From: a bacterium
Lineage (GTDB): Bacteria; Cyanobacteriota; Vampirovibrionia; Gastranaerophilales; JBAXKC01
Length of the DNA stretch: 64,000 bases
Assembly (NCBI GenBank): GCA_037137535.1
Contig: JBAXKC010000009.1
Location: forward strand, 26,871-90,870
Direction of reading: 5' to 3'
In this document: positions 3,342 to 6,778 of the stretch, in pieces
Layout: every line of letters begins with the position of its first letter
Position numbering within the stretch: position 1 is the stretch's first letter
Translations under genes and position numbers: made by a program
The notes under the pieces: model-generated
Databases searched by the model: none
What the model was told of the DNA's origin: nothing
The model's input: the letters and a program-made list of their open reading frames with translations, nothing else

Positions 3342-4790
3342 ATGATAAAAATAAATTCTGAAACAATTAAAAAAACTGTTTATGACCTTTGCTTTCAAGC
3401 AAATATCTATACATCAAAAGATGTTTATAATGCTTTGTTAAATGCTTATAAAACTGAAACTTCAGAAAAAGCTAAAAATGTAATAGGCGAAATCCTGCAA
3501 AACATCCAATTATCAGCTATTTCACAAAGACCTTTATGTCAAGATACAGGTTTTGTGACTGTCTTTGTCGAAATTGGAAATAATATTTTTATAGAAGGAC
3601 AAAGTATAACAGATGCAATTAATGACGCTGTATCACAATGTTATACAGAAAATTTTTTCCGCAAGTCAATGGTATCAAATCCAATTTTTGAAAGAAAAAA
3701 CACCAACGACAACACTCCTGCAATTATTCATACAGAAATCGTTACAGGAAATGAAATCAATATAAAAGTTGCAATTAAAGGCTGTGGCAGCGAAAACATG
3801 AGCCAAATCAAAATGTTAAAACCATCTGACGGAATAGAAGGAATTATTGATTTTGCAGTTAATACAGTAAAAGAAGCCGGCTCAAGACCTTGCCCCCCAA
3901 TAAGATTAGGGCTTGGAATAGGCGGGACATTTGATAAATCAGCAGTTTTAGCAAAAAAATCGTTATCTTTACCTGTTCAAACAGAAGAAGACCTAAAAAA
4001 CAATAATGACGATATTTCTAAACTAGAACTGGGAATAATGCAAAAATGCAACGAGCTTAAAATAGGCGCAGCAGGATTAGGCGGTAATAATACTGTTTTT
4101 GGAGTAAATATACTAACTCACCCTACTCATATTGCGGCAATGCCTGTTGCAATAAACATAAACTGCCATTCTTCAAGGCATTCAGAGGCAACTATTTCCG
4201 AAAACGGTGTTAAATATCACACCGATGAACTTCAAACAGAATTTGAGAATATTGAAATAAATAACAACTATGAAAAAAGAATAAATACCGATGAAATAGA
4301 AAAAATCAGAAATTTATCAGCAGGAGAAAGCGTATTATTGAGCGGTAAAATAATAACTGCAAGGGATGCAGCGCATAAAAAAATTGTCGAAATAATACAA
4401 GCAGGAAAAAACTTACCCTTTGAGCTGAAAGACAAAATTATTTATTACGTCGGACCTTGCCCCGCTAAAGATAATGAAATAATAGGTCCATGCGGACCGA
4501 CAACCTCATCACGAATGGACAAATATATGCCTGTTATACTAAAAAACGGAATGTTAGCCTGTATTGGCAAAGGTTCAAGAGATAATCAGGTAAAAGAAGA
4601 ATTAAAACAATACAAAGGTCTTTATTTTATTACTACAGGCGGAGTTGCAAATCTTTTAAAAGAAAAAGTCAAAGCCTCAAAAATAATAGCCTTTGAAGAA
4701 CTAGGCCCTGAAGCCGTTTATGAACTTGAAATAAAAGACTTTCCAATAACTGTTGCAATAGATGCTGATGGTAATAATTTCATCAGATAA
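3342..4790 (+). CDS. Class I Fe-S fumarate hydratase (alpha and beta domains in one chain)
   Basis: PLCQDTG, KGCGSEN, PCPP, NCHSSRH, TARDAAH, GPTTSSRM. Confidence 0.88.
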   Translation: MIKINSETIKKTVYDLCFQANIYTSKDVYNALLNAYKTETSEKAKNVIGEILQNIQLSAISQRPLCQDTGFVTVFVEIGNNIFIEGQSITDAINDAVSQCYTENFFRKSMVSNPIFERKNTNDNTPAIIHTEIVTGNEINIKVAIKGCGSENMSQIKMLKPSDGIEGIIDFAVNTVKEAGSRPCPPIRLGLGIGGTFDKSAVLAKKSLSLPVQTEEDLKNNNDDISKLELGIMQKCNELKIGAAGLGGNNTVFGVNILTHPTHIAAMPVAININCHSSRHSEATISENGVKYHTDELQTEFENIEINNNYEKRINTDEIEKIRNLSAGESVLLSGKIITARDAAHKKIVEIIQAGKNLPFELKDKIIYYVGPCPAKDNEIIGPCGPTTSSRMDKYMPVILKNGMLACIGKGSRDNQVKEELKQYKGLYFITTGGVANLLKEKVKASKIIAFEELGPEAVYELEIKDFPITVAIDADGNNFIR

Positions 4791-4799
4791 AAAAACGCA

Positions 4800-4876
4800 A
4801 AATAAAAGCCACCTTTTAGGGCGGCTACCAGACTTTGGGGAGGAGGTTGGGGTATGACCATTTGTTTGGTCTATAC
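4800..4876 (-). ncRNA. Candidate sigma-28-dependent small RNA with anti-Shine-Dalgarno tract
   Basis: GC-rich intergenic stretch: 5' hairpin (4852-4876), CCCCAACCUCCUCCCC (4852-4837), terminator AGCCGCC-loop-GGUGGCU-UUUAUUUU (4826-4800); consensus sigma-28 promoter directly upstream; ends approximate. Confidence 0.65.
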
Positions 4877-4881
4877 ATTAT

Positions 4882-4908
4882 TTATCGGCAGCTTTCTGAA
4901 AAACTTTA
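4882..4908 (-). promoter_or_regulatory. Sigma-28 (FliA/SigD)-type promoter
   Basis: Minus strand TAAAGTTTTTCAGAAAGCTGCCGATAA = TAAA-N15-GCCGATAA, including the extended TAAAGTTT -35. Confidence 0.8.
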
Positions 4909-4941
4909 ATACTTTATTTAGATGATTTAACAAAACTTAAT

Positions 4942-6354
4942 TTATTTTAAAAAATTCTGCTTATGATTTAACTTAATATCATTAATTTGTTTTATAAAAT
5001 TTTCATATTGTGCATTCAATTTATTTTTAAAATTGTATTTTTCAATATCCTCAAAAAGTCTTATAAAGTATAAATCTTTATTCAATATTTTTTCTAAAGT
5101 ATCAATAACTTCCTCATATGATTCATTTTCTAAAAATATATTTATTAAATTGCACAACAAAAAATAACTTTGAGAATTATCAGAAAGGATTAAACTCATT
5201 TCTAAAATTTTCTTATAATCGTTTTTGTCTTTATTTTTCAAATAGGCTAATTCTAATAGAGCCAGTACATATAAATCATTAGAATCAATCTCAATAGTTT
5301 TCAAGAAATACTTTATTGCTGTTGAATATTTTTCTAAATAAAAATAAGTACAAGCTAGATTGAAATTGCTATCATAATTTAAAGGTTCAAGCTCATAGGC
5401 TTTTAGATAATATTCTATGGATTTATCATTATCTATATTTAGATATGAAAGTCCCAGATTACAATTAACATCGAAATTATCTGAATTAATAAAATTAGCC
5501 TTTTCATAATACTCTATAGCTTTATCATATTCTTCTTTTTTATGATAAATAAGACCAAGATTAAAATTAACATCAAAATCATTCTGATTAAAATTTAAGG
5601 CTTTTTTAAAATATGGAATTGCTAAATCATACAAGGTTTTATTATAATGAATAATGCCTAAATTATAATAAGGAGTAGCACAATCAGGATCAATAGCAAT
5701 TGCTTTTTCACAACTATTAATTGCTAAATCATATAATTCATTTTCAATGCAAATTGCACTTATGTCTAAAAAACGAGCAAGATTATTAGAATCTATACTA
5801 GCAGCTTGATTATATGAATCAAGAGCAAGATTGTATTCTTTTTTCTTAGAGTAAATACGAGCAATAACATCTAAAATTTTATAGTTATTGGGTGCCAATT
5901 TTAAAAGCTCTTTATATGCGTCAATAGCTAAATCATATTCTTTTTGGCACAAATATGCATATCCTAGATTATTATGAGCCACAACTTCATTTGGAGTTAA
6001 TTTAATTGCTTTAATACAATTTTGAATAGCCAAATCGTATTCTTTATGGAACAAATAGGCATATCCCAAATTAGCATAAAAAGATTTATAATTGGAATTT
6101 AACTTTGAAATTTTACTAATAACTATATTATTAACATCAAATTCAATAGCTTTTTCATAATTTTTAATAGCTAAATCATATTCTTTCAAATAAAAATATA
6201 GATCACCCAAAAAAATATATCCTGAAATTTCATTAGGTTTTAAAGTTATAACTTTTTTAAAATTATGAATGGCTAATCTATATTCTTTTTTTTCAAAAAA
6301 TGAACCACCTTGTTCTAAATAATACTTATAATCTTTTTCTTCTGAATTAGTCAT
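4942..6354 (-). CDS. Tetratricopeptide repeat protein
   Basis: About ten 34-aa repeats (NLGYAY...EYDLAI..Y.KAI); start moved to ATG 6354 behind GAGGTG RBS. Confidence 0.85.
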   Translation of the reverse strand: MTNSEEKDYKYYLEQGGSFFEKKEYRLAIHNFKKVITLKPNEISGYIFLGDLYFYLKEYDLAIKNYEKAIEFDVNNIVISKISKLNSNYKSFYANLGYAYLFHKEYDLAIQNCIKAIKLTPNEVVAHNNLGYAYLCQKEYDLAIDAYKELLKLAPNNYKILDVIARIYSKKKEYNLALDSYNQAASIDSNNLARFLDISAICIENELYDLAINSCEKAIAIDPDCATPYYNLGIIHYNKTLYDLAIPYFKKALNFNQNDFDVNFNLGLIYHKKEEYDKAIEYYEKANFINSDNFDVNCNLGLSYLNIDNDKSIEYYLKAYELEPLNYDSNFNLACTYFYLEKYSTAIKYFLKTIEIDSNDLYVLALLELAYLKNKDKNDYKKILEMSLILSDNSQSYFLLCNLINIFLENESYEEVIDTLEKILNKDLYFIRLFEDIEKYNFKNKLNAQYENFIKQINDIKLNHKQNFLK

Positions 6355-6778
6355 TTCACCTCTTTTAGTAAAATTTAGTCTACTGTAAAAAAACACTTAT
6401 AAAATAATTACTTAATTTTAATTATAATAATAGCTTTGTCATAATCATAAAATTCAATGACCAAATCGTCAAACAAAAAACTACTCTATATTAAAAGGGA
6501 TATTAATCTAAAGAGCAATTGTAACATTATTTTAATTTAGTTATTATTTTTGGTTTTGAATAAAATTCCTCAAAAAAACTGTATTTTTACTCTATGCAGA
6601 TAAATTCCTCTAACATTAATGACATTTTCTTAATTTATTAGCAGTTATTAAGCAAAATTAAACAATAAAATGTTCCATTTCGGATTTTCGAAAAAAATCA
6701 AATGCTTGACCAAAACTTTTTTAAGTATGAAAATCATTATATGAAGTAAGAATCATGTTATTTTTAGGAGGTAGACAA

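Follow-up and report, generated by a model that had tools for sequence, protein, structure and literature searches.

The stretch of DNA analyzed here, a window of 64,000 nucleotides (nt; 64 kb) from a contig of a Gastranaerophilales genome, very probably carries the gene of a small RNA (sRNA) of about 76 nt. Judged by the comparison of its homologues, this RNA is a real and conserved family that has not been filed before, and it probably serves as a regulator linking motility to protein synthesis. The gene occupies the minus strand between the stop codons of a TPR-repeat gene (open reading frame (ORF) 6396-4942, minus) and the convergent class I fumarate hydratase gene (3342-4790, plus). The initial annotation of this locus had proposed a stand-alone sRNA gene with a flagellar promoter and an anti-Shine-Dalgarno (anti-SD) seed, which agrees with the own promoter and terminator, the covarying helices and the missing conserved ORF described below; beyond that proposal, the gene has been found to be multicopy, its seed to be longer, and the RNA to persist in the family f3. 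Coordinates refer to the window, C numbers denote contigs of the genome from which it comes (own genome, G000; 2.95 Mb, 31% G+C, 81 contigs), f numbers denote families and L numbers relatives.

Promoters of FliA, the sigma factor of flagellar genes (sigma-28), consist of a -35 element TAAA(GTTT) and a -10 element GCCGATAA that are 15 nt apart, corresponding to N11 in the extended form. The exact extended consensus TAAAGTTT-N11-GCCGATAA is present at 4908-4882 (minus; score 16/16), with the -35 element TAAAGTTT at 4908-4901 and the -10 element GCCGATAA at 4889-4882, 11 nt past the -35 octamer. The pattern TAAA-N15-GCCGATAA, on which the initial annotation was based, occurs once in the window compared to 0.01 matches expected from 100 shuffled sequences. 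The predicted transcript of 74-78 nt covers 4799..4876 (minus), whereby both ends were deduced from the comparison of paralogues. The latter are nearly 100% identical between AGACC (4872) and the end of the U tract, in contrast to their divergent flanks and promoter spacers; hence, transcription should start at 4872-4876 and the 3' end should lie within the U tract.

The RNA would begin with the hairpin GUAUAGACCA-AACAAA-UGGUCAUAC (GUAU-A-GACCA / UGGUC-AUAC; 4876-4852, minus), which is supported by folding and covariation. Its inner stem pairs GACCA (4871-4867) with UGGUC (4860-4856) around the loop AACAAA. Among the nine paralogues in the own genome only this inner stem is kept; the outer GUAU/AUAC pairs differ from copy to copy, for which the start of transcription at this place is the probable reason. 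The hairpin is followed by the region CCCCAACCUCCUCCCCAAAGUCUGGUAG (4852-4825, minus), which is conserved and unpaired in the minimum free energy and centroid folds. This linker exposes the C-rich stretch CCCCAACCUCCUCCCCAAAGUC with CCUCCUCCCC at 4846-4837 (minus), and continues into the invariant 3' part AAAGUCUGGUAG at 4836-4825 (AAGUCU(A/G)GUAG, AAGUCUAGUAG). We propose CCCCAACCUCCUCCCC as the seed; the conserved seed CCCCAACCUCCUCCCCAAGUC is far longer than an anti-SD. The intrinsic terminator AGCCGCC-CUAAAA-GGUGGCU (4826-4807, minus) has seven pairs, five of them G-C, and a T-rich tail that gives the U tract UUUUAUUUU (4807-4799, minus) abutting the stop codon of the fumarate hydratase gene. 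Apart from it, no terminator-like site was found in 4600-5100, and the scan of this interval gave no sigma-70-like site in front of it. The 82-nt RNA folds with -22.5 kcal/mol (z = -3.5), a stability reached by 0/200 shuffles, and leaves the C-rich stretch unpaired. The hairpin, C-rich linker and terminator of the initial annotation were thus recovered at the same minus-strand positions.

Conservation, copies and coding potential

A DNA search detected the element in 55/61 genomes of the same order (records titled Gastranaerophilales or Melainabacteria), distributed over the families f2 (1/1), f3 (27/27), f4 (3/3), f5 (7/12), f6 (3/3), f7 (1/1), f8 (5/5), f9 (5/5) and f10 (2/3). Many of these matches also include the promoter, and three to six matches, some of them in tandem, were obtained in several genomes. 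Homologues of the same layout also occur in three further families of the class. To go beyond direct sequence similarity, a covariance model was built from 37 sequences, for which the structure was set by hand, because MAFFT/RNAalifold recovered only the terminator and misaligned the hairpin. The linker columns are invariant across these 37 homologues; the conserved core comprises 21 nt. The model found the RNA in 34/151 class-wide genomes, namely the own genome, 31/32 of f3 and 2/14 of f18. The two f18 matches show the same layout and combine a CGATA -10 element and CCCCAACCUCCUCCCCAAGUC with a hairpin and a terminator stem that both differ.

An even wider distribution was obtained with the exact 15-mer CCTCCTCCCC[AG]AGTC, which is present in 183/401 genomes of the class, whereas the reversed-pattern control gave 2 hits. 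It was detected in f3 (158/188), f8 (2/2), f18 (17/25), f20 (3/5) and f14 (3/19), and was not found in f11 (0/2), f12 (0/104), f13 (0/30), f15 (0/9), f16 (0/12), f17 (0/3) and f19 (0/1). The own genome lacks the exact 15-mer, because its copies carry an extra A. Among species-representative genomes, the 24-25-nt core was located at no fewer than 118 loci, in records whose titles include Candidatus Gastranaerophilales, Candidatus Melainabacteria, uncultured Vampirovibrio and similar names, together with some metagenome-assembled genomes that are evidently labelled generically.

The structure is supported by an alignment of 69 model-fitted hits (68 distinct; alignment A2), in which 88% of the cells pair compared to 76% in column shuffles (0/500 reach this value) and 26-60% in slid controls, although it must be considered that fitting hits to the structure favours the structure. 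Compensatory changes were found in 9/14 pairs, comprising 7/7 pairs of the 5' hairpin and 2/7 of the terminator; 93.7% of the terminator cells are paired. The hairpin stem of f3 is wholly different (AUGAAAAAC/GUUUUUCAU), and other hairpins at the same place with different sequences occur in f5 (GGUC...GACC) and f18 (GAGC...GCUC, GAGGGA...UCCCUC).

The family appears to be the first regulatory RNA described for Vampirovibrionia/Melainabacteria. In line with the statement in the initial annotation that no sRNA family was known from this lineage, the search of Rfam 15 gave RgsA as the only hit in the window, with 15.4 bits compared to a gathering score of 88.4 (E = 0.56), six homologues had 0 hits at E <= 1, and full-text literature searches found no description of sRNAs in Vampirovibrionia, Melainabacteria or Gastranaerophilales.

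The own genome harbors nine near-identical copies of the RNA gene, each with its own sigma-28 promoter, whose -35 element is kept in 8/8 positions in all of them and in most homologues outside f3. Besides the window copy on C9, they are located at C1:105683-105794, C4:111058-111169, C22:34963-35072, C34:8737-8846 and C8:7873-7986, and as a tandem triple copy with a 161-nt period at C4:50434-50867. From AGACC to the U tract the paralogues differ only in one loop base (C8) and a few bases of the terminator loop, while the promoter spacers, the 9 nt past the -10 element and the flanks differ between the copies; this pattern shows that the transcribed part has been subject to selection or to gene conversion. 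The copy C1:105683-105794 is situated directly downstream of fliK-flgD-flgE and another is divergent from a chemoreceptor gene; the remaining copies have housekeeping genes as neighbours. A relative from another family, L010, also carries the element next to fumarase. Decayed relics of the RNA gene were noticed at C45:~3572 and C8:~58700, and both orientations occur. Tandem arrays of two or three units exist also in the relatives L033, L022, L028, L025, L020 and L016. The arrays in the own genome and in relatives therefore indicate recurrent local amplification.

Nine copies with relics in both orientations and the occurrence of tandem arrays could also be explained by a non-regulatory repeated intergenic module, either similar to repetitive extragenic palindromes and miniature inverted-repeat transposable elements or a portable terminator, which would end the transcription of neighbours such as the TPR gene, downstream of which it provides the sole terminator found. 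However, the promoter is conserved along with the RNA across families, the 21-nt single-stranded core does not vary between orders of the class, f3 genomes hold exactly one copy, and the aligned flanks contain neither terminal inverted repeats nor target-site duplications. Moreover, the hairpin covaries around the invariant single-stranded core, which argues for selection on an RNA and not on a terminator, and makes the repeat explanation very improbable.

The initial annotation stated that the transcript contains no ORF. Strictly, a 47-codon ORF exists at 4861-4718 (minus), which starts within the hairpin and extends in antisense direction into the terminal part of the fumarase gene; it is, however, not conserved among the homologues. 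The possibility that the locus encodes a tiny leader or stalling peptide, in which CCU-CCU-CCC would specify a Pro-Pro-Pro stalling motif, could draw on this ORF and on mini-ORFs ending with ...PPPQV(W)* in a number of homologues. We regard it as the least probable of all explanations and have dismissed it in the absence of a conserved ORF and with mixed reading frames: in 20/64 distinct homologues no ORF with a start codon spans the core, and the ORFs of the others are spread over three frames (29, 20 and 5), the extra A in the own-genome copies shifts the frame, and the starts lie inside the hairpin with no SD before them.

The sigma-28 promoter and FliA

The sRNA promoter is, with high probability, of the FliA type. 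The own genome was scanned for TAAAGTTT-N10-12-GCCGATAA, with TAAA and CGA required and a threshold of 13/16, which yielded 70 sites; all six sites with 16/16 and three more are copies of the RNA gene. Likewise, seven of the 25 genome sites matching TAAA-N14-16-GCCGATA[AT] correspond to copies. Conservation of promoter and seed in relatives, as anticipated by the initial annotation, was observed: 32/35 distinct upstream regions outside f3 score at least 13/16, and the C-rich stretch is invariant. FliA itself, which had to be present for this proposal, is encoded in the own genome at C23:27701-28375 (TIGR02479, 247.4 bits, cut-off 189.6).

Since FliA exceeds the cut-off in 57/61 genomes of the order, no informative fliA-less genome was found there, and the comparison was made at the level of the class. 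FliA is present in f3 (32/32), f11 (2/2), f13 (28/30), f14 (17/17), f15 (7/9), f16 (12/12), f18 (14/14), f19 (1/1) and f20 (1/1), and was not found in f12 (0/30) and f17 (0/2). All families in which the RNA core occurs encode FliA, and the core was not found in the FliA-less families f12 and f17 (0/104 and 0/3). This relation is one-way, because the four FliA-bearing families f11, f13, f15 and f16 are without the exact core.

The same motif was also found upstream of flagellin genes. The own flagellin gene at C11:19609 is preceded by TAAAGTTT-N11-ACCGATAG (14/16) 168 nt upstream; no such motif was found within 200-350 nt upstream of the other five own flagellin genes. When own and related genomes are taken together, the motif occurs within 350 nt upstream of 11/30 flagellin starts with scores up to 15/16, whereby the 30 starts were found by regular expression, include an alternative start of one gene, and tandem flagellins may share a promoter. 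Ten of the 11 motifs score at least 13/16, compared to about 0.1 expected from the genome-wide hit density.

A further motif, TTAAGTTTTGTTAA (TTAAG-N4-GTAA[A/C]; 4927..4940, minus), is located about 20 nt before the -35 element. It is kept in all nine own copies where the neighbouring sequence diverges, similar motifs exist in several relatives with an intact promoter, and it could be the site of a second regulator or an UP-like element. In f3, f8 and f9 another conserved upstream element, CTACATCA...GA(G/T)GAGATTTT, is found instead, which in some genomes forms a full hairpin AAATCTCCTC-loop-GAGGAGATTTT. Both kinds of upstream elements may represent a second regulatory input.

Predicted targets and possible mode of action

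A pattern search found no 16S ribosomal RNA (rRNA) 3' end in the own assembly; hence, the anti-SD was read from relatives. Their 16S rRNA ends with ...GGAUCACCUCCUUUCU and its tail reads CACCUCCUUUCU, which identifies CCUCCU as the anti-SD core, as the initial annotation had assumed. To predict targets, 2598 genes were called by a simple ORF/SD heuristic, and for 2591 starts the duplex energy between the 32-nt single-stranded region of the sRNA and the positions -40 to +21 was calculated (genome median about -9.6, 5th percentile -18.15 kcal/mol). Flagellar genes were annotated with Pfam and NCBIfam, and their clusters were located with FlhA, FliF, FliM and flagellin models.

The 32 flagellar genes of the main system show a median of -17.65 kcal/mol, compared to -9.5 kcal/mol in 2550 others (Mann-Whitney p = 2e-12), and 16/32 of them belong to the top 5%, compared to 113/2550 of the others (Fisher 2e-13). 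These top-5% genes encode a flagellar lytic transglycosylase and comprise flgF, flgG, flgI, flgJ, flgN, flgK, flgL, flgE, flgD, fliK, motA, motB, fliN, flgC and fliF. Of these, motA is located at C1:333948, flgI at C15:16137, flgN at C15:17963 and flgK at C15:18479. Outside the set of 32, high ranks were also obtained for two genes: the one preceding flgN, which is probably flgM although it has no family hit (-20.4), and the one for a response regulator of the LuxR type (C36:10084) that immediately precedes the flgB operon (-25.8). Among flagellar genes located independently of the pairing energy, 8/20 are in the top 5% according to a tally of the listed energies. The values of the six flagellins, and of further genes that have sigma-28-type promoters, are spread over percentiles 14-98. 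A GGGG motif is present in 9/32 flagellar leaders compared to 156/2550 of the others. In relatives, motA leaders of 15 genomes keep a G-run 10-20 nt before the start; these motA orthologues have a median of -15.7 compared to -11.05 kcal/mol for 24 flagellin starts (Mann-Whitney p = 7e-4), and 5/15 motA starts but only 1/24 flagellin starts lie beyond the 5th percentile of the own-genome background. A match to the motA coding sequence, GACUUUGGGAG (codons 2-5), was also considered as a target; it is not conserved in orthologues and was therefore not relied on.

These predictions change the target class proposed initially, which comprised strong ribosome-binding sites (RBSs) in general; the predicted targets are instead early and middle flagellar genes. 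The seed matches pointed out in the window, AGGAGGT at 6766-6772 in front of glnA and AACCTCCT at about 797 (plus), do exist, but are unremarkable as targets; the glnA site has a predicted energy of -12.6 kcal/mol, which is ordinary in relation to the median and the 5th percentile of the genome.

A global action of the same RNA from the same promoter would nevertheless explain part of the data. Here, an abundant free anti-SD would compete with 16S rRNA at all strong or G-rich RBSs with no flagellar preference, whereby translation as a whole would be dampened or re-weighted. The seed includes the 16S anti-SD core CCUCCU, the words GGAGGTT (30 vs 2) and AGGAGGT (22 vs 4) are enriched at starts genome-wide, nine copies suggest a high dose, and the RNA is retained in f3, where flagellin and MotA were not found. 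Furthermore, shuffled C-rich seeds favour flagellar leaders, too. However, the real seed separates flagellar genes (area under the curve (AUC) 0.144) better than all 60 shuffled seeds (0.249 +/- 0.033, 0 as low) and than the plain anti-SD 10-mer (0.275); genes with the canonical AAGGAG, flagellins included, score as ordinary; and the 21-nt conserved core is much longer than an anti-SD. We therefore judge the purely global action as unlikely.

The role of the 3' half of the linker has been considered separately. Complementary 7-mers are enriched at translation starts only for sRNA positions 16-33, and no enrichment was found at starts for positions 34-47. An antisense search for the 3' linker (up to 2 mismatches) returned only the decayed relic on C45 and three sites in unrelated sequence. 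It might be possible that the invariant single-stranded CCUCCUCCCCAAGUCUAGUAG is a binding platform through which a protein is sequestered or delivered, for example a KH-type protein that binds C/U-rich RNA or a ribosome-biogenesis factor, and that the RNA acts with no seed pairing. About 12 invariant nt 3' of the seed that have neither complementary sites nor start enrichment, the multicopy organisation and the persistence of the RNA in f3 would suit this explanation; a multicopy organisation is typical of titrating RNAs of the CsrB/RsmY type. On the other hand, no candidate protein was identified, and f18 homologues keep only AAGUC of the 3' part. CsrA is encoded at C1:47184, but the RNA has no GGA motif, so that a function as CsrA sponge was rejected. 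Mimicry of the 16S 3' minor domain (AAGUC...GUAGCCGU plus a helix-45-like hairpin) was rejected as well, because the resemblance is at chance level (score 16 compared to 13.3 +/- 2.0; 140/1000 shuffles as high). A protein-binding function is hence quite improbable, even more so than the global competition with 16S rRNA.

Collectively, we favour, with somewhat better than even confidence, a trans-acting sRNA of about 76 nt that acts by anti-SD pairing. The comparison of homologous sequences defines an independent unit composed of sigma-28 promoter, covarying hairpin, invariant C-rich stretch and intrinsic terminator. We strongly infer that it is transcribed by the FliA-carrying RNA polymerase; with FliA as the proposed sigma factor, the RNA should accumulate late in flagellar assembly, and the nine copies may sum to a high dose. 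CCCCAACCUCCUCCCC would then pair with G-rich SD regions (GGGGA, GGAGG, UUGGGG) and block binding of the 30S subunit. The preferred messenger RNAs (mRNAs) are predicted to be those for the basal body, rod, hook and hook-associated proteins and for the MotAB stator, while flagellins and other genes with sigma-28 promoters would be spared through their ordinary AAGGAG sites. Such a late-to-early negative feedback would shut off structural genes once FliA is active. The preference for early and middle flagellar mRNAs is a more tentative part of this model, for which we see slightly less than an even chance.

Several observations weigh against this model or reduce its weight. The dependence of the RNA gene on sigma-28 is deduced from its sequence alone, and in three RNA runs of the same sample the word share was 0.00 with 0 contigs over 4700-5000, which is uninformative on expression. 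The Hfq hit is weak (17.8 bits, below cut-off), so that Hfq would be divergent at best. Regarding the targets, the enrichment is partly compositional, as shuffled C-rich seeds favour flagellar leaders with an AUC of 0.25, i.e. below 0.5. Moreover, genes of the same operon do not count as independent cases, attention was drawn to the C15 operon by its high rank, and start codons came from a heuristic that rewards SD-like motifs. The motA leaders of two f9 genomes do not pair (-7.6), and the invariant AAGUCU(A/G)GUAG has no complementary partner in the genome. The two best predicted targets, the starts of the genes C27:7547 and C1:112581 (417 and 189 amino acids; no Pfam/NCBIfam hit), have the look of sRNA genes that were copied in antisense, placed on start codons and then decayed, and not of evolved sites. 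The similarity of the regions C27:7505-7550 and C1:112545-112600 to the reverse complement of the sRNA extends past the seed.

The situation in f3 has to be added to these objections. In its 99%-complete genomes of about 1.9 Mb, flagellin was found in 0/4 (E <= 1e-20) and MotA in 0/10, while FliA, rod-type proteins and a protein resembling FlhA (about 700 bits, below the cut-off) are retained. These genomes also hold on to one copy of the RNA, with an altered -10 element and hairpin; hence, the role of the RNA cannot be purely flagellar or confined to the assembly of a filament. The f3 promoters keep the -35 element as AAAGTTT, but the -10 element is degenerate (CCGTATA-like), and only 3/27 upstream regions score at least 13/16. 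The f3 genomes (e.g. G002, G010, G017, G024 and G028) may represent a non-motile lineage that keeps part of the apparatus and its regulators. In the own genome, a second flagellar-type export and basal-body set is located at C13:60-11210, beside the main genes on C3, C36, C15 and C1; it comprises FlhA-like (670 bits), FliF-like, FliE, FliH, FliI-like, rod-like and SLT genes. Nine genes of this cluster show a weak shift in pairing energy (median -12.0, p = 0.015).

Relation to known small RNAs and significance

Sibling sRNAs whose single-stranded CU- or C-rich motifs base-pair with SD regions are known from Firmicutes, for example LhrC1-5 of Listeria and RsaE/RoxS. The LhrC genes are multicopy and in tandem, and LhrC, RsaE and RoxS are regulated by two-component systems. 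The RNA described here differs from them in lineage, in the regulator, which would be sigma-28, and in structure. By sequence logic it is closest to the cuckoo RNAs of Alphaproteobacteria (RSs0680/CcsR, SmelC397/alpha-r14, NfeR1). These carry a CCUCCUCCC motif that resembles the anti-SD and for which RBS occlusion has been proposed; they are multicopy with clusters of up to 9, and their stems are variable with many compensatory changes, while the motif alone is conserved, according to the parts of PMC4615179 considered here. The same word CCUCCUCCC is met in our RNA (within CCUCCUCCCC, 4846-4837, and invariant in homologues), together with multiple copies and variable stems. However, membership in the cuckoo family fails, because the cuckoo motif is placed in the loops of 2-4 adjacent hairpins (PMC4615179), whereas our RNA has a single motif, located in the linker that joins hairpin and terminator, and its loops read AACAAA and CUAAAA with no motif in them. 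The two also differ in phylum, and a sigma-28 promoter is not mentioned for cuckoo RNAs in these parts of the paper. The likeness most likely reflects convergence rather than homology.

With regard to regulatory logic, the RNA is a new family of a known kind, its nearest counterparts being the sigma-28-dependent sRNAs of Campylobacter and Escherichia coli. In thermophilic Campylobacter, the parts of PMC4626219 used here describe CjNC1 and CjNC4 as sigma-28-dependent paralogues with predicted pairing to 5' untranslated regions (UTRs) of earlier-class flagellar genes; their targets are sigma-54-dependent genes, and they were Hfq-independent in a reporter system. They share with our RNA the late-to-middle feedback logic and the organisation as paralogous RNAs of sigma-28 type. 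In contrast, CjNC1/CjNC4 exist in two experimentally supported copies, while the nine copies here are known from sequence only, and no sequence relationship was seen. The sigma-28 sRNAs of E. coli are controlled by FliA and add a post-transcriptional layer to the flagellar cascade; in the sections of PMC10578931 that bear on this they are UTR-derived, single-copy and Hfq-associated, whereas here the gene is stand-alone and multicopy with an anti-SD-type seed and only a weak Hfq hit in the genome. Furthermore, CJnc230 (FlmE) and CJnc170 (FlmR) of C. jejuni balance hierarchical flagellar expression, as far as covered by the consulted parts of PMC11187230. FlmR is FliA-dependent and lowers flagellar length and motility, while FlmE is encoded downstream of flgE, RpoN-dependent and processed from the flgE mRNA. 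The copy C1:105683-105794 also follows flgE, but has its own sigma-28 promoter, and no sequence similarity was seen.

The findings could be combined into a much more far-reaching picture, which we consider speculative and, taken as a whole, unlikely. The release of FliA would switch on up to nine genes, and a look-alike of the 16S tail would flood the cell as a dosage-amplified free anti-SD that fits GGGG-type RBSs better than the ribosome does. Translation would thereby be shifted from basal-body, hook and motor mRNAs to those of the filament stage, forming a checkpoint on top of the transcriptional hierarchy. As parts of the same picture, the RNA would have originated independently from the alphaproteobacterial cuckoo RNAs sharing CCUCCUCCC, and f3 would have re-used the pair of FliA and sRNA for its remaining flagellar-type export apparatus.

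The RNA and its promoter are conserved throughout an order of uncultured bacteria frequently met in the guts of animals and in water, and they offer a concrete and testable link from the flagellar sigma factor to translation. The anti-SD word CCUCCUCCC was apparently invented independently of the large alphaproteobacterial sRNA family of which it is otherwise the hallmark, which bears on how easily such seeds evolve. For genome annotators, the covariance model and the 15-mer core provide a new RNA family, and the sigma-28 motif helps to define the late flagellar regulon in these genomes. Finally, three paralogous small proteins starting with MGLAASQ(A/G)R are encoded at C9:24182-24511, which is about 2.4 kb before the start of the window, C15:45683-46267 and C15:29318-29917. 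They have no family hit, each gene stands behind a sigma-28-type promoter (13-15/16), and the proteins may be unrecognised late flagellar components.

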